Part shown: one piece after another, positions 3,870 to 62,873 of the stretch
Layout of the letters: the number at the start of each line of letters is the position of its first letter
How positions within the stretch are numbered: position 1 is the first letter of the stretch
DNA from: Candidatus Moraniibacteriota bacterium
GTDB lineage: Bacteria > Patescibacteriota > Minisyncoccia > Moranbacterales > JAPLXC01
Direction of reading: 5' to 3'
Assembly: GCA_026396275.1 (NCBI GenBank)
Contig: JAPLXC010000002.1
Location: 10,618-74,617, forward strand
DNA: 64,000 nt
Made by a program: the position numbers and the translations under genes
Notes under the pieces: generated by a model
The model's input: only the letters and a program-made list of their open reading frames with translations
The model's database searches: none
What the model was told of the DNA's origin: nothing

Positions 3870-5318
3870 TTATTTATTCACATCAACTAAAAATTTTCCT
3901 AAATTTCTCTTTCCTATGATTACGGGATATTTTAAATGAGACCGTTCAATTATGGAAATTTTAGCAGGAATAACCTTCTCGCCTATCATAATATCTATTT
4001 TCACCATTGGACGATAAGTTGTTCCGTGTGATGAATGGATAATGGCCGTGTCAGCTAAATCCGGTATTTCTTTAAGAAGCTGCTCTTTATTTTGATTGTC
4101 AATTTCTCTTGCTTTTTCAGGAGTTAACAGATCAGGAAAGTTTTTCCTTTGAAACTTTTCCATTACTTCTTTAAATCCTAATTGTTCTGCAATATCCTTA
4201 TCAATGGAAGAAAATCCGGCTCCAGTATCAATTCGCGCTTCCACTTCAACTTCCTTTTCCTCTTTTCCAATTAATTTTACTTTTTCAACCGTGCCAATAA
4301 CTTTTCTTCCGGAAATATCCTCGATCTCGCCTTCAATTTCTCCTCCGAAAAGGTTCATTCCGACCCGGATTCCCCGCTCGGCGGTTTTAATTTTTATATC
4401 TGCGATTCTTTCCAATCTCCTTTTCAAGCCCGCGAGATTGGCGATTTGAATGGAAAGACCCGGTCGGGCGTTGAGTTCCAGAAAAACCGGACCGCGCTCG
4501 CGATCAATAGCAATATCGGCTCCTAAAAATCCTAATCCTGAAATCTCTTGAGTACGGACTGCCAACTTCAGAATATCATTCCAGTAGGGAATTTTGATTC
4601 CTGATAAAAGCAGGCGAGTGTCCGGAACATACTCAATGATTTTCCCTTTTCCTAAAACGGCAGTGGTAGTTACGCCGGAAGCTAAGTCAATCCCGACGCC
4701 AATTGCCCCTTGTTGGAGATTGGCCTTACCTTGCGATTCCTTAGTAGGAAGCCGGAGCATTGCCATTACCGGAACTTTGTTATAGACAATTACCCGGATA
4801 TCGGGAATTCCCCGATAAGCGTAGGGCTTGAATAGTTTGAGAAGCTGAAGACGCTCTTCAAAAAAAGCCGTGTCGGGAATATTGGAAAGAGAAAATGAAC
4901 CATCAATGATATTACGAATGTGATTTTTCAGGTCCTCAATGGTAACTAACGATCCATCTGCTTTAATCCAGGTATCTTCCAGTTCCCCGCCTGCATCCTG
5001 TCCGGGGTAGGAAGCATCGCGGGCAGGCTTTTTCTTTCCATAAACAACCAGAATTCCCTCGCCGCCAAATCCGCGGTTGGGCTTCAAAGCGAAACTCGTC
5101 GGTAGGATGCTCCAGTCAAATTTTTCCAGATCCTCAAGAGTTGTTATTCTGGCAATCAGTCGGGGAACAGGAATTTCATTCTTTTTTAAAATTCTCTTAC
5201 TTAGAATCTTGTTATCAGCTATCCGCTTGGCTTTTTTGAGGTTAAAAGGGCGGATGTACTGAAGATTGCGGGAATTCATTCCCAAGATCTGGCCGGTTTT
5301 TCGAAAAAACTTGAACAT
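3870..5318 (-). CDS. Alpha-L-glutamate ligase-like ATP-grasp protein fused to a C-terminal RimK-associated retropepsin-like protease
   Basis: LGMNSRN, KPNRGFGGEGI, PDIRVIV, MAMLRLPT, ANLQQG, ELNARPGL.IQ.AN. C-terminal ARIDTGA..SSI, RP.V and IGKR.L. Confidence 0.85.
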   Translation of the reverse strand: MFKFFRKTGQILGMNSRNLQYIRPFNLKKAKRIADNKILSKRILKKNEIPVPRLIARITTLEDLEKFDWSILPTSFALKPNRGFGGEGILVVYGKKKPARDASYPGQDAGGELEDTWIKADGSLVTIEDLKNHIRNIIDGSFSLSNIPDTAFFEERLQLLKLFKPYAYRGIPDIRVIVYNKVPVMAMLRLPTKESQGKANLQQGAIGVGIDLASGVTTTAVLGKGKIIEYVPDTRLLLSGIKIPYWNDILKLAVRTQEISGLGFLGADIAIDRERGPVFLELNARPGLSIQIANLAGLKRRLERIADIKIKTAERGIRVGMNLFGGEIEGEIEDISGRKVIGTVEKVKLIGKEEKEVEVEARIDTGAGFSSIDKDIAEQLGFKEVMEKFQRKNFPDLLTPEKAREIDNQNKEQLLKEIPDLADTAIIHSSHGTTYRPMVKIDIMIGEKVIPAKISIIERSHLKYPVIIGKRNLGKFLVDVNK

Positions 5319-6601: not shown

Positions 6602-7339
6602 TTATAAATTATCAAAGATTTCTTGAACATCGTCTTGGTTATCAAGCGCTTCCAAAAGTTTTTCATAGTCCAGCTTTGTATCCTGATCTAAAGAAATTTT
6701 CTGAAGCGGGGCAAATACAAGACCGGCGTTTTCAATTGATACTTTATGCTTTTCTAAATGTTCTTTTACTTTCTGTAACTCTTCTGATTTCGTAAAAACC
6801 GTTAAAGTTCCGCCGGAATAAATTATGTCTTCTGCGCCTGCTTCAATGGCTTTCAATTCCAGCTCATATGGGTCTTCATCAGCTCCTACTGGAATATTAA
6901 TATTTCCCACTTGCTTAAAAAGATAACTTACTGAACCAGCGGGGACTAATTTGCCTCCGGCTTTAGTTAAAATATTTTTTAACTCTCCGAGTGTCCGATT
7001 TTTATTATCCGTCGCGGTTTTAATGAGCATTGCCACCTGCCCGGAACCACCCGCCTGCTGTACGGGCAGGTAGGCCTCATAAATTACTTCTTCCACTGTT
7101 TCGCCTTTAAGCTCGCCGGTTCCTCGCTTGATAGCCCGCTCAATATTTTCCTTCGGCATGTTAACACTTTTGGCTTGGTCAATGGCTAACTTTAATTTCC
7201 AGTTTGTTTCCGGATTGCTCCCGCCTTCCCGAGAAGCAATGGAAATTGCCCGTCCGAATTTGGTAAAAACATTCGCTCGCTTGGCATCCGTTATCGCCTT
7301 TTTATGTTTTATTCCCGCCCAATGGGAGTGACCTGACAT
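6602..7339 (-). CDS. yebC: YebC/PmpR family protein carrying a 7-aa palindrome-derived insertion
   Basis: Start MSGHSHW at 7339; MPKENIERAI, TDNKNRT; sits next to ruvC. Confidence 0.95.
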   Translation of the reverse strand: MSGHSHWAGIKHKKAITDAKRANVFTKFGRAISIASREGGSNPETNWKLKLAIDQAKSVNMPKENIERAIKRGTGELKGETVEEVIYEAYLPVQQAGGSGQVAMLIKTATDNKNRTLGELKNILTKAGGKLVPAGSVSYLFKQVGNINIPVGADEDPYELELKAIEAGAEDIIYSGGTLTVFTKSEELQKVKEHLEKHKVSIENAGLVFAPLQKISLDQDTKLDYEKLLEALDNQDDVQEIFDNL

Positions 7340-12473: not shown

Positions 12474-12532
12474 TGTCATGCTGAACTCGATTCAGCATCT
12501 AATTAGATTCCGGCTCGAAGGCCGGAATGACA
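12474..12532. repeat. TGTCA-tagged palindrome dimer (REP-like)
   Basis: TGTCATGCTGAACTCGATTCAGCATCT-AATT-AGATTCCGGCTCGAAGGCCGGAATGACA. Confidence 0.85.
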
Positions 12533-12537
12533 AATAC

Positions 12538-12828
12538 TTATCCAAGCAATGTTTCACTTAAATCTTTCCATTTGGGATTACTTTTATTGATTAAATCAAT
12601 TTTCCATTCACGTTTCCAATTTTTAAGCTGTTTTTCTCTGGTTAAGGCGCTTCTGACATCTTCAGTCTGCTCAAAATATACTAATTTTTTCAAATTGTAT
12701 CTTTTAGTAAAACCATCAACCAGTTTATTTTTATGCTCATAAATTCTTTTAGATAAATTACCAGTAACTCCGGTATAAATTACTGTATTAATTTTATTGG
12801 TCAAAATGTAAACACAATATTGTTTCAT
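12538..12828 (-). CDS. GIY-YIG nuclease (UPF0213/YhbQ-like)
   Basis: YCVYIL..IYTGVT.NL.KR.YEHK, FTKRY, REKQLK.W.R.WK..LI...NP.W.DL; likely start MKQY at 12828. Confidence 0.92.
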   Translation of the reverse strand: MKQYCVYILTNKINTVIYTGVTGNLSKRIYEHKNKLVDGFTKRYNLKKLVYFEQTEDVRSALTREKQLKNWKREWKIDLINKSNPKWKDLSETLLG

Positions 12829-12835
12829 AAAAATT

Positions 12836-12862
12836 AGATCCCGGGTCAAGCCCGGGATGACA
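12836..12862. repeat. TGTCA-tagged palindrome monomer
   Basis: AGATCCCGGGTCAAGCCCGGGATGACA immediately upstream of the GIY-YIG start. Confidence 0.85.
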
Positions 12863-12902
12863 TTAAAGCAAAACTTTTGATTTTTGCATTTTGATTTTTT
12901 AT

Positions 12903-53748: not shown

Positions 53749-54068
53749 GATTTCTTTACGAATTACCTGCCTGCCGGCAGGCAGGCGAATAACGTACAAA
53801 TATACGAATTATTAATTTATTCTTAATTAATATACATAAGCAGTTTATCACAAAAAAACTGTTTTGTCGAAACGGCTCTTGCCAAAAATAGGTAATTAAT
53901 ATATGATTCTCTCTAGTAGTAATTATTAAGAAAATTGAATAGAGGATAAATTAAGATCCTCATTTTTCTTAATAATTTCCTTTATTTTAAGGGAAATTTT
54001 TGTTTTATATCTCGCCCTCTTAATTATTGACTTAATAGTTAGTGTCGGCGTTGATATTTTTTAGATTT

Positions 54069-60013: not shown

Positions 60014-60982
60014 ATGAAGAAAATAAACTATCTGGAAATACTTAAAAAGTCCTGGAAAATTACCTGGAGCAACAGGTATCTCTGGTGGTTTGGATTTTTT
60101 TTGGCTCTGGGAAAAGGCGGAGTGAATTTTAATCTTCCTTTAAACTGGAACAATCAGGAAAGCAAAAAGGAAGAGGAATTTATCCGTGTTTTTAACGATT
60201 TTATGGCTGGATACTGGGAATGGCTGCTGGCGGGCCTGCTTTTTATGATAGTTCTAATGCTCGTGATAGTTGTCTTAAAAATCATCAGCCGGGCGGGACT
60301 AATTAAGGGAGCGGCGGAAATTGAAAAAGGGAAAGCATTTAGTTTTAAAGAGGGATTTCTTCAAGGAAAAAAATATTTTTGGAAGATATTCCTTACTGGT
60401 TTTCTGATTGCCTTCTTTCTGATCGGGATAATAATCACTCTTTTTTCTCCAGTGGCTTTTCTTATCTATCTTAAGTCCTATATCTTAGCTGTGATTTTAG
60501 GATTTCTGGCAGTTCTTCTGATTATCGCGCTGGCAATTTTGGTCTCTTTTATCAAGGAATACGCATATATTTACTTAGTCCTTTCCAATCTTAGCGTTAG
60601 GTCTTCACTGGAAAACGCCTACCAGCTTTTTCGCCGCAATATCTGGCCGAGTGTTATTATGATGCTGATTTTCATCCCTATCGGACTCGCGATAGGTATT
60701 GCTGCGATGCTTCTTCTTCTGACGCTGGTCTTGGTTTTCCTGATAATCGGACTTGCGGCTTATCTAATTCTGGCTAAAATTGGCGTTATTTTGACCGTTA
60801 TTCTGGGGTCTTTGGTTTTTCTGGCTCTCGTTTTGCTCCTGCAGTCGATCTTTGAGACCTTCCGCCAGGTCGCCTGGGTGCTGTTTTTCAAAGAAATTGC
60901 TTCAGTAAAAGTTGAGGAAGAAGTAACTGAAAAAGAAACAGTAAAAACCGCAGAAAAGGTCTTGGACGCGGGAGAAGCGTGA
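60014..60982 (+). CDS. Multi-pass membrane protein
   Basis: About six TM helices; W...W....LW.FG pattern. Confidence 0.8.
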   Translation: MKKINYLEILKKSWKITWSNRYLWWFGFFLALGKGGVNFNLPLNWNNQESKKEEEFIRVFNDFMAGYWEWLLAGLLFMIVLMLVIVVLKIISRAGLIKGAAEIEKGKAFSFKEGFLQGKKYFWKIFLTGFLIAFFLIGIIITLFSPVAFLIYLKSYILAVILGFLAVLLIIALAILVSFIKEYAYIYLVLSNLSVRSSLENAYQLFRRNIWPSVIMMLIFIPIGLAIGIAAMLLLLTLVLVFLIIGLAAYLILAKIGVILTVILGSLVFLALVLLLQSIFETFRQVAWVLFFKEIASVKVEEEVTEKETVKTAEKVLDAGEA

Positions 60983-61100
60983 GATCATGGAACATATAGC
61001 ATGAAACATGTAACATTAACAGGGAAAGATTTTACAAAACAGGAATTGGTAGATTAGTAAAGAAATTCATATTAAGAGCGATGAAAAGTTTAAGTAAATC

Positions 61101-61163
61101 GGGCAATTAGCTCAGTTGGTTACCCGCCCGAACGTACCGTCGTTCGGTACGGGCGGGGAGTGC
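61101..61163 (+). pseudogene. tRNA 5' part (acceptor + D arm) with a 35-bp hairpin inserted in the D loop
   Basis: GGGCAAT-TA-GCTC-AGTTGGTTA[35 bp]GAGT-GC; GGGCAAT pairs with ATTGCCC at 61657-61663. Confidence 0.75.
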
Positions 61164-61170
61164 TATATTT

Positions 61171-61431
61171 ATGTATACCGTATACGTGTTACAAGACAAA
61201 GAAGGAAAATTTTACAAAGGTGTTACAAATAATATTAAGCGCCGACTCTATGAACATAAACAGGGCAAAACAAAAACTACAAGAAAGATGGACGAGTTAA
61301 AAATTGTTTACACAGAAAAATACAAAAACTTTAAAGAAGTGAGAAGAAGAGAAGTTTATTTTAAAACTGCAGCAGGAAGAAGATTTTTAAAGAAAATATT
61401 AAATAAAAGGGCGACTAGCTCAGCTGGTTAG
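61171..61431 (+). CDS. GIY-YIG nuclease overlapping the 5' end of tRNA-Val
   Basis: YTVYVL....FYKG.T.N..RRL.EH..G....T, RE.YFK...GR. Confidence 0.88.
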   Translation: MYTVYVLQDKEGKFYKGVTNNIKRRLYEHKQGKTKTTRKMDELKIVYTEKYKNFKEVRRREVYFKTAAGRRFLKKILNKRATSSAG

Positions 61432-61482
61432 AGCGTCACATTGACATTGTGAAGGTCACAGGTTCAAGTCCTGTGTCGCCCA
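61409..61482 (+). tRNA. tRNA-Val(GAC), intact, CCA not encoded
   Basis: GGGCGAC/GTCGCCC acceptor, GCTC/GAGC D stem, TCACA-TTGACAT-TGTGA anticodon arm, ACAGG-TTCAAGT-CCTGT T arm. Confidence 0.95.
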
Positions 61483-61586
61483 CTTAGTTCAGTTGGTTAC
61501 CCGCCCGAACGTACCGTCGTTCGGTACGGGCGGGGAGCGCTTCGTTGACATCGAAGAGGTCTGCAGTTCGAGTCTGCACAAGCCCA
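61483..61586 (+). pseudogene. tRNA-Val(GAC)-like copy lacking its 5' acceptor strand, with the same 35-bp D-loop insertion
   Basis: CTTCG-TTGACAT-CGAAG anticodon arm, TGCAG-TTCGAGT-CTGCA T arm, 3' CAAGCCCA with no GGGCTTG partner. Confidence 0.8.
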
Positions 61587-61600
61587 CTTGTTTATATATA

Positions 61601-61664
61601 GGCAATTTTAGAGTGCCCCGATGTAACATCGGGGAGGTCGCTGGTTCGATTCCAGCATTGCCCA
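61601..61664 (+). pseudogene. tRNA 3' part / D-arm-deleted tRNA with an abnormal anticodon loop
   Basis: GGCAATT-TTAGAGTG-CCCCG-ATGTAACAT-CGGGG-AGGTC-GCTGG-TTCGATT-CCAGC-ATTGCCCA. Confidence 0.75.
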
Positions 61665-61672
61665 CTCAAAAT

Positions 61673-61699
61673 AAAAATCGCCACCTTTGGCGATTTTTT
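61673..61699. terminator. Bidirectional intrinsic terminator
   Basis: AAAAATCGCCA-CCTT-TGGCGATTTTTT between convergent units. Confidence 0.75.
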
Positions 61700-61730
61700 G
61701 TATTGGCAATTTAGCAATGTAACAAATCAA

Positions 61731-62873
61731 TTAATATCTCGGTTTAAACAACGACCCCGGTCCCTGTTGGTTCATTGTATTTCTAACTTGATTCATCATA
61801 TTAGCGTCAACGTTGCGAATTTCCCGGTTAATTTGGGTCTGGACCATACCCACCCCGCTGCGGATAGTGGTAGTTATGACTCGATTGATAGTTGACATCA
61901 CTATTGCCCCTAAAAGTTCAGCCGGATTAGTAGTACCGGCAATAATTTTATTCCCCAAGTCTTGGACGTTGGATTGAATATCTTTTATGGTGCTTCCGGG
62001 AGTAATTACCATTCCTCCGGAGGTCCTAGCCAGATATCCCTGATAAGCAATCGCTTGAATTTCCGCTTTTTTTCTTTCCTCCTCCAGTTTTCTTTGGTAT
62101 TCAGCTTGAGCCATTAAAGAATATCCGAAGGGATTATTGGCGGGGTTAGAGATAAAGGCACTGAAGGCCCGCCAGTTGCCTTGGGCAAACATTTGAGATG
62201 GATCAGACGTGTACTCTTGCAAAGTGACCTGTGGAATTCCGCCTCCCATCGTGGCTTGCCTGGCTTGATTCTCGAGATAAGTGAAATAGCTTCCGGTAGC
62301 AGAACCGCCCCCTATTCCTCCTCCCGAACCCGTACCGATGCATTCTCCCGCTCCCGTAACTTGATCAAATGAACAATTATTACTACAACATTCACTGGAA
62401 GCAGAGCAGCTATCACCTTCATTCTTACACATTGATTGGTTTGATATACACTCATTTCCCTCTGCATCCCAAGTATAATTGGCGGGACAGTAGTTGGATG
62501 TTGATGACCTACCGCCGGTAGTAAGTGTGAAAAAGTCGTTAAGATAAAACTCGGTATTTCTCGCGGGGTTAGTATAGAGAAACTGCTGCCAGTCAGTGAT
62601 AAACATCGCGTTTCCCATTCCGGTTCCCCCAATCAGATTTCCCACTTGGGTATTCATCATCTGAAGAGCTGTCATTTTTAAAGATCCCAAGATTGCCCCT
62701 TCAATCTCGCGCTGGATTACCTCCATAGTTTGCTTCAAAACAGCGGCTGCTATATCTTCTCCCCAAACGCCAGCTTGTGCTCGAGGAACATTATTAAAAG
62801 CAAAGAAAAAAGAAGCGAGGACTAGGACAAAAACAACAGCTGCTCCTTTTACTTTTTTGTTCGTTGGCTGCAT
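61731..62873 (-). CDS. Secreted hypothetical protein with a Cys-rich insert
   Basis: Signal peptide (AQA); FITDW, NP.NNP.G, TPG..I. Confidence 0.8.
   Translation of the reverse strand: MQPTNKKVKGAAVVFVLVLASFFFAFNNVPRAQAGVWGEDIAAAVLKQTMEVIQREIEGAILGSLKMTALQMMNTQVGNLIGGTGMGNAMFITDWQQFLYTNPARNTEFYLNDFFTLTTGGRSSTSNYCPANYTWDAEGNECISNQSMCKNEGDSCSASSECCSNNCSFDQVTGAGECIGTGSGGGIGGGSATGSYFTYLENQARQATMGGGIPQVTLQEYTSDPSQMFAQGNWRAFSAFISNPANNPFGYSLMAQAEYQRKLEEERKKAEIQAIAYQGYLARTSGGMVITPGSTIKDIQSNVQDLGNKIIAGTTNPAELLGAIVMSTINRVITTTIRSGVGMVQTQINREIRNVDANMMNQVRNTMNQQGPGSLFKPRY

Follow-up and report, generated by a model that had tools for sequence, protein, structure and literature searches.

A 35-bp hairpin in two dead valine tRNA copies around a GIY-YIG nuclease gene: a candidate miniature mobile pair in a small bacterial genome

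The locus analysed here lies in a 64,000-nucleotide stretch of contig JAPLXC010000002.1 of a Candidatus Moraniibacteriota bacterium (the whole stretch is referred to as the window) and comprises three valine tRNA alleles nested around a nuclease gene. The outermost allele is an old valine-type tRNA gene in two parts. Its dead 5' piece (61101-61122, + strand) consists of the acceptor strand and the D arm as far as the D loop, and the 7-nt acceptor strand pairs 7/7 with 61657-61663 in a 3' remnant found 450 bases downstream (61608-61664, + strand), the anticodon arm of which is a 19-bp near-palindrome (61616-61634). The 5' piece is followed by the first copy of a 35-bp bulged hairpin (61123-61157), inserted after TA without duplication, and by GAGTGC (61158-61163, + strand), which by its sequence is the 3' strand of the D stem of the old tRNA and is repeated at the start of the 3' remnant. 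The host of this copy is a 28-nt 5' tRNA piece that ends 6 nt past the hairpin and is followed by the ORF of an 86-aa single-domain GIY-YIG nuclease (61171-61431, + strand; PF01541, E 1e-12). The last codons and the stop codon of the nuclease gene lie inside an intact tRNA-Val(GAC) (61409-61483, + strand), which is the only tRNA called in the window by ARAGORN and by Rfam at gathering scores; no other GAC valine tRNA was called anywhere in the genome. The third allele is a second tRNA-Val(GAC) copy. It has a D arm (61485-61499, + strand) without the 5' acceptor strand, the second copy of the 35-bp bulged hairpin at the same D-loop site (61500-61534) and a 3' part (61535-61587, + strand) that is 98% identical over 53 nt to the plain gene of one relative (G010) and 94% identical to that of another (G020). 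The locus ends at a terminator-like inverted repeat (61673-61698) identified by consensus match only, and a consensus search of the + strand found no sigma-70-like promoter at the locus. Ahead of the locus, a short repeat at approximately 60980-61020 matches several other places in this genome (G000) and in relatives and represents another small repeat family.

Analysis of the hairpin revealed the two identical copies that the first-pass annotation of this DNA had reported; they are in direct, not inverted, orientation, and no third copy was found in the 810,038-base genome when up to 8 substitutions were allowed. Both copies are inserted exactly at GGTTA|GAG in the D loop. Alignment to the hairpin-free tRNA-Val(GAC) at the orthologous locus of G010 and G020 showed a clean 35-nt insertion with zero bases duplicated or lost, in agreement with the duplication-free insertion that had been proposed. 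The 35-mer folds as RNA with -22.7 kcal/mol (z -3.3; 0 of 200 shuffles were equally good) into a stem with a 4-nt bulge, and the two ways of folding described earlier correspond to two alternative inner stems, which can be seen in the sequence and when either strand is folded as DNA. The host assignment of the earlier annotation was not upheld. Two different tRNA genes had been named as hosts, with possible survival of the insert in mature RNA, and the hosts proved to be dead copies beside an intact gene: the only tRNA called is 61409-61483, and the host of copy 2 is still not a tRNA after removal of the hairpin (its acceptor pairs 2/7). Since the insertions are clean and neither host is a tRNA, the hairpins plug two different dead valine alleles. 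The copies bracket the GIY-YIG gene, as had been recorded, and they bracket the intact tRNA-Val(GAC) as well, which had gone unmentioned.

The ends of the 35-mer had been assigned to a CC(T/C)GCC...GGC(A/G)GG family together with repeats at 4986, 7050, 23139 and 53766. Pairs of this type are indeed enriched genome-wide (62 strict matches vs approximately 10 expected). The idea of one family is not supported, because different nuclease clades go with different hairpins, as described below, and the repeats at 4986, 7050, 23139 and 53766 have the outer stem alone in common. The statement that five of the six copies follow TA has to be corrected to three of six, or at most four: TA is found directly before the repeats at 53766, 61123 and 61500, the repeat at 7050 has TA on the other strand, and those at 4986 and 23139 have no TA on either side.

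Comparison with 17 loci of relatives that have a flanking-gene homologue and a tRNA-Val(GAC) revealed a plain gene in 16 of the 17 (130 nt on each side). The remaining locus, that of G002, carries another hairpin at the identical GGTTA|GAG position, plus a nested tRNA. The acceptor and anticodon stems of tRNA-Val(GAC) vary widely among relatives (L001-L030) at one locus between homologues of 60014-60982 and 61731-62873. Because the stems differ so widely between relatives at the same locus, their sequence divergence suggests frequent allele replacement. A 170-nt Logan contig of the sediment run X3 (record 25; window 61068-61614; depth 2.9, no mismatches) contains one hairpin and skips 377 bases; its hairpin has the left flank of copy 1 on one side and the right flank of copy 2 on the other, and the nuclease gene and the intact tRNA-Val are missing from it. 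This structure could represent a genuine allele without the cassette, or a misjoin at low depth via a 49-nt repeat. Positions 61184-61271 are uncovered by contigs of runs X1-X3, and missing cover alone proves nothing.

In the 86-aa protein, PF01541 spans residues 1-68. Six residues (Y5, Y15, G17, R25, H29 and E61) were unchanged in 20/20 aligned sequences, and we take these to be the likely catalytic set. Three of them, Y5, Y15 and E61, would match the motif positions of Y6, Y17 and E64 of SsnA, a GIY-YIG nuclease of Neisseria, judging by sequence. The GIY-YIG fold is seen in the alignment-based structure model (pLDDT 90), which replaced a single-sequence model (pLDDT 57). The closest folds were those of At-HIGLE (Z 7.3, rmsd 4.4, 85 aligned) and Slx1 (Z 6.8, rmsd 4.1, 83 aligned), approximately tied with I-TevI (Z 6.2); since these Z scores are middling, they indicate the fold alone. 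A Foldseek search with the model gave zero matches at E <= 0.001. The top sequence matches were the UPF0213 proteins 1zg2 (E 5e-6) and 1ywl (E 6e-6). A close relative was found neither in viral contigs (59 candidate stretches) nor in annotated phages, where the matches were only distant (a Rhizobium-phage GIY-YIG protein with 37% identity). Twenty viral stretches fit a loose hairpin pattern and none of them has a tRNA or nuclease within 500 bases; most of these matches look like chance GC-rich matches. A phage origin of the cassette was considered and rejected, viral contigs having neither a relative of the protein nor a hairpin near a tRNA or nuclease.

Close relatives of the nuclease were analysed for the presence of the hairpin. 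All 23 distinct full-length close relatives examined (the window, nine genomes of the order, G094, seven metagenome loci and five genomes of the wider phylum; L104 and L169 are duplicates of L103) contain the hairpin family, located within a duplicated fragment of the tRNA next to the gene. In three partial matches to the clade (L049, L105 and L106) no hairpin was seen. Among the 200 genomes of the order sample, nine have a close relative of the nuclease (E below 1e-25) and a tenth has a frameshifted one, all with the hairpin family beside the gene. The host tRNAs belong to 10 isoacceptors (Val-GAC, Val-CAC, Asp, Ile, Met, Ala-CGC, Ala-GGC, Ala-TGC, His and Thr), and the insertion site varies (after position 7, after position 9, in the D loop or in the anticodon loop). 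Because each piece is a copy of the local tRNA and the insertion point is not constant, the hairpin has been re-inserted many times. An intact tRNA gene of the same type adjoins the hairpin-bearing piece wherever the contig is long enough. The layout with two hairpins also recurs: two identical 32-nt copies in G209, and two variant copies in G237, bracket the nuclease gene and an intact tRNA-Ala. Decayed nuclease copies, frameshifted or truncated, occur, and the clade is patchy (10/200 order genomes). The GIY-YIG enzyme, put forward earlier as the candidate mobiliser, thus belongs to the clade that the 23/23 pairing makes the strongest candidate for a partner of the hairpin.

Some loci have a more complex arrangement. 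L042 (G099:C28) consists of tandem units of a tRNA-Met 3' piece, a nuclease gene and the hairpin, and L031 of four 122-bp tandem units with a hairpin-split tRNA-Thr 5' piece. The hairpin itself is interrupted by a second, different hairpin in L168 (G420:C4), and in L098 it forms a compound with a different hairpin; hairpins land in hairpins. In L174 (G389:C3) a GIY-YIG gene has a 5' tRNA-Met-like piece on one side and, on the other, a tRNA-like gene whose anticodon arm seems to contain a long insert, possibly a true intron.

A protein tree of 73 rows and 93 columns, from which L104 (duplicate), L105 and L106 (partial) and L116 (internal stop) were omitted, split 29 Ssn-like genes from 44 others with 100/100 support and a long branch; the inner forks are poorly resolved. 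None of the 29 Ssn-like genes is located at a tRNA, vs 38 of the 44 genes in the sister clade. Of the Ssn-like genes, 28 are flanked by an SRM match (8) or a GTCA tag (20 more), and the clade is named by these flanks, not by a named SsnA sequence; the window protein falls outside it. The Gln- and Gly-linked nuclease clades have other hairpins. Tree and manual reading together indicate that the repeat type co-varies with the enzyme clade, with one counter-example, L096, where a copy of the hairpin family is found beside a Gln-clade nuclease. The other GIY-YIG gene of the window (12538-12849, minus strand) is flanked by TGTCATYCC-tagged hairpins (12480-12865) and groups with 28 similar genes, none of them at tRNAs; it looks like a member of the Ssn/NTS system.

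A hairpin pattern independent of TA and tRNA was identified in 22/201 genomes of the order and 19/301 genomes of the phylum, with 0 control matches. Copy number is low, with a maximum of 5 per genome in the 201 sample and 8 in the 301 sample. The exact hairpin core is present in Peribacteria, as a four-copy array ahead of a tRNA-Thr and a GIY-YIG gene and in a tRNA-Ile piece, and in Bacteroidetes, outside tRNAs. In one order sample the pattern was found in 9/10 genomes with the nuclease clade vs 12/190 without a detected close nuclease, kin among these genomes not being independent. Abundance of the family in genomes without this clade had been named beforehand as the observation that would speak against the link, and it was found in part: besides these 12 genomes, 18 of 24 selected hairpin-positive genomes have no intact close nuclease, two of them having truncated genes beside the hairpin, and the copy number in genomes without the nuclease is low (1-8).

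Insertion sites were counted by hand; an automatic mapper overlooked both copies in the window, along with other diverged hosts. No target-site duplication was found in 43/43 copies, the flanks sharing 0-1 nt. TA is present beside the hairpin in 14/17 distinct combinations of tRNA type and site vs 8.6% of tRNA bonds, and beside 11/11 tRNA-piece copies of a later phylum-wide sample; since TA is concentrated at tRNA stem junctions anyway, a preference for TA and a preference for TA next to a stem are indistinguishable in these counts. Overall, TA is found beside 27/43 copies, a sample that includes non-tRNA hosts, and beside 6/18 non-tRNA copies of the later sample; the hairpin is often located outside tRNAs, and such copies frequently lie within other palindromes. 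Copies occur in both orientations at many sites. The inner stem is kept paired by compensatory change in 144/145 cells, a count resting on 3-4 subtypes, and its Watson-Crick pairs number 111/116 vs a shuffle mean of 71. The fixed-register count for the alternative stem (67/116) is not meaningful, two subtypes being one base apart in register.

Analysis of the genome as a whole revealed eight small GIY-YIG genes; five of them run up to an intact tRNA (Val, Glu, Pro, Gln and Trp), and at least four of these five loci have a hairpin-split 5' piece of the same tRNA upstream. Hairpin-split pieces without a nuclease gene precede tRNA-Lys, tRNA-Ile and tRNA-Ser of this genome and are also found at L076 and L146. 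A partial sense-strand copy is present within 350 bases of 17/47 tRNAs, with 0/47 antisense and 0/235 random controls. Intact tRNAs were also seen nested in the anticodon loop of older alleles of the same type, bounded by inverted repeats with a CCCCGCAC core (G000:C14:85200-85400, C16:15200-15400, C2:9570-9900, C14:84900-85150, C14:94250-94700 and C22:25200-25500), with threefold nesting for tRNA-Ala(CGC) on C2. The CCCCGCAC core has 19 of its 28 copies within 400 bases of a tRNA, a zone of at most 5% of the genome. Two Y1_Tnp (RAYT-like, HUH) genes, at G000:C19:3480-3710 and C7:68358-68603, have their own differing short repeats, and the repeat of the C7 gene occurs in frame three times as the peptide GGSTSK. 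ComEC and DprA are present in the genome.

Because the hairpin family accompanies this nuclease at many tRNA genes of other bacteria with small genomes, the two likely form a miniature selfish element. On balance, and with no great confidence where the mechanism is included, we favour the reading that the 35-mer is the non-coding partner of the neighbouring GIY-YIG nuclease and that the two together colonise tRNA genes, with mobilisation by the nuclease suggested by analogy. The hairpin enters in the manner observed above, without target duplication, mostly beside TA, at several positions and in many tRNA types. On the precedent of Ssn and the Slx1/HIGLE-like fold, the enzyme may bind its own bulged hairpin in single-stranded DNA and nick beside it, and may also nick tRNA genes folded as single strands, where TA meets a stem. 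GIY-YIG enzymes hydrolyse DNA and to our knowledge have no strand-joining step, so the next step would need host enzymes: host recombination or repair would join the cut ends during uptake of transforming DNA or at replication forks, and the hairpin alone, or a hairpin-bounded segment with the nuclease gene and a tRNA, would be copied into a tRNA gene. An event would presumably survive only if an intact tRNA of that type remained, and this would explain the recurrent layout of a broken piece with hairpin, a nuclease gene and an intact tRNA. In the window, two old valine alleles would have been hit, either twice independently or by short-tract copying (<= 49 nt) between D loops.

The pairing could also have arisen if another enzyme, such as a RAYT/IS200-type HUH transposase, or host gene conversion moved the palindrome, and the hairpin and the GIY-YIG gene shared redundant tRNA pieces as a safe haven and then travelled together. 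Insertion without target duplication beside a short motif is a hallmark of IS200/IS605 elements, the genome has two Y1_Tnp genes, some genomes have hairpins but not the clade, and tRNA pieces split by a hairpin are common where there is no nuclease gene. We nevertheless regard this account as rather unlikely, since each of the two Y1 genes has different flanking repeats of its own, and since co-location alone hardly yields 23/23 pairing across 10 isoacceptors with a new site each time, or a hairpin type that changes with the nuclease clade. The nuclease might instead be a domesticated Ssn-like filter that trims incoming transforming single-stranded DNA at hairpins and so limits or steers replacement at tRNA loci, hairpin spread being a by-product. 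The lowered integration of NTS-bearing DNA by SsnA in Neisseria (PMC11893778), the presence of ComEC and DprA and the wide variation of tRNA-Val(GAC) alleles at one orthologous locus are in line with such a role; however, the patchy presence (10/200 order genomes) and the frameshifted and truncated copies resemble a mobile passenger, and the tandem arrays (L042 and L031) and changing host tRNAs fit a passenger better than a kept host function, which makes the filter improbable.

Less probable again is a free-standing homing endonuclease that cuts double-stranded tRNA genes, with the hairpin as a resistance plug destroying its site. The model for it is SegB of phage T4, a GIY-YIG enzyme in a tRNA cluster with a site that includes the T-loop motif (PMC2330249), and conserved tRNA motifs are indeed interrupted by the hairpin here. 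The gene has beside it, however, a tRNA of identical sequence without a plug (e.g. L040), which would be cut; the bare 86-aa domain has no space for a separate DNA-binding domain; and no close relative was found in viral contigs or annotated phages. The clean loop insertion and the strong RNA fold would suit a new type of tRNA intron, or a D-loop insert tolerated in working tRNAs, but we consider this very improbable, because removal of the hairpin restores a tRNA at neither copy, an intact gene of the same type is alongside wherever the contig is long enough, and the hairpin occurs in both orientations and at many sites. The intron reading was rejected on the findings that Rfam at gathering scores detects tRNA and no intron RNA family in the window, that copy 2 without its hairpin is not a tRNA and that the host of copy 1 is a fragment; the first-pass annotation had likewise argued against a group I/II or bulge-helix-bulge intron. 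Duplication of the hairpin during assembly is barely credible. The X3 contig that skips 377 bases and the uncovered stretch at 61184-61271 are what could be cited for it, but the flanks of the copies differ and come from different tRNA alleles, the skipped segment contains the only tRNA-Val(GAC) of the genome and an intact ORF, and G209 and G237 share the double-hairpin layout at tRNA-Ala. Overall, we are highly confident of the descriptive part of the favoured reading, that the 35-mer is a mobile palindrome in dead tRNA copies and not an intron.

More speculatively, the pair may represent a class of minimal mobile elements, each composed of an 80-residue GIY-YIG enzyme and a 30-38-nt bulged DNA hairpin in clade-specific pairs, that recognise tRNA genes in their folded single-stranded form, enter at TA sites without a transposase or integrase and carry replacement tRNAs; we hold this to be possible but doubtful. 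If such a class exists, it would imply serial replacement of essential tRNA genes, to which the nested tRNA-in-tRNA loci seen across this genome would belong, and a new set of nucleases specific for single-stranded DNA beyond Ssn. Ultra-small bacterial genomes are thought to be streamlined, yet broken tRNA copies are found near 17 of the 47 tRNA genes here. If the nuclease recognises the hairpin, the Ssn principle would extend to a further GIY-YIG clade, one that is lodged at tRNAs and offers numerous natural pairs of enzyme and hairpin. Such pairs would be candidate tools for single-stranded DNA and would bear on the spread of palindromes without a transposase, a long-open question for REP-like repeats.

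Comparison with known systems revealed partial likeness to several of them. No description of a GIY-YIG/hairpin pair in tRNA genes was found in full-text literature searches, which covered few subscription papers; GIY-YIG has 0 occurrences in the CPR ribosome paper PMC9297842. Among homing systems there is a likeness to SegB, whose gene is also located among tRNA genes and spreads with them, although this enzyme cleaves a 27-bp site in double-stranded DNA (PMC2330249) and is not paired with a hairpin. Unlike SegB, the enzyme described here is a bare domain on a bacterial chromosome with a partial tRNA duplication alongside. In fungal mitochondrial homing-endonuclease genes the nuclease ORF likewise lies between a gene and its partial copy, the genes in those cases being protein genes and having no cognate hairpin (PMC6279837). 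Palindromic elements of Rickettsia also spread into genes; they are 100-150 bp long, and the passages of PMC1779305 that describe them name no nuclease. Slx1, HIGLE and UPF0213 proteins show the best likeness in sequence and fold, and the window protein has no RING or partner domain. IS elements and MITEs with a DDE transposase differ by the target-site duplication, which is absent in 43/43 copies and in the clean gap to the orthologues.

The two systems nearest to the cassette are Ssn/NTS and REP/RAYT. SsnA of Neisseria meningitidis is a 94-aa GIY-YIG enzyme (CDD cd10448) with the partner hairpins NTS/SRM; it cuts single-stranded DNA beside its own hairpin, even when the loop is replaced by long extensions, but neither double-stranded DNA nor RNA, and a mobile-element origin is raised by its authors themselves (Chenal et al. 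2025, PMC11893778). The cassette resembles it in having a single-domain GIY-YIG enzyme of <100 aa, short hairpin repeats flanking the gene and a hairpin of the clade's own (PMC11893778). In contrast to Ssn, as recognised in the tree by its flanking repeats, the window protein appears to belong to a separate clade (100/100 support, long branch), and its hairpin has no GTC tag; the SRM pattern gave 0 matches in 61000-61750 and 9 elsewhere in the genome, a strict pattern that also misses the hairpins of the window's Ssn-like gene. Copies here number 1-8 vs hundreds for NTS, and they are lodged in tRNA pieces, whereas 'tRNA' occurs 0 times in the main text of PMC11893778. Unlike in Ssn/NTS, empty sites here document precise insertions. 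With REP/RAYT the cassette has in common that cognate palindromes of 20-40 bp flank the enzyme gene and co-vary with the enzyme (Nunvar et al. 2010, PMC2817692; Di Nocera et al. 2013, PMC3733652); GIY-YIG is unmentioned in the latter. It differs from REP/RAYT in that the flanked gene encodes a GIY-YIG enzyme and not an HUH tyrosine transposase (Y1_Tnp), the copies are direct and not inverted, the targets are tRNAs, and there are 2 copies vs often >100 per genome. As the cassette does not match the SRM motif and has no Y1 transposase of its own, it is filed under neither system, yet it would work like an Ssn/NTS or REP/RAYT pair.
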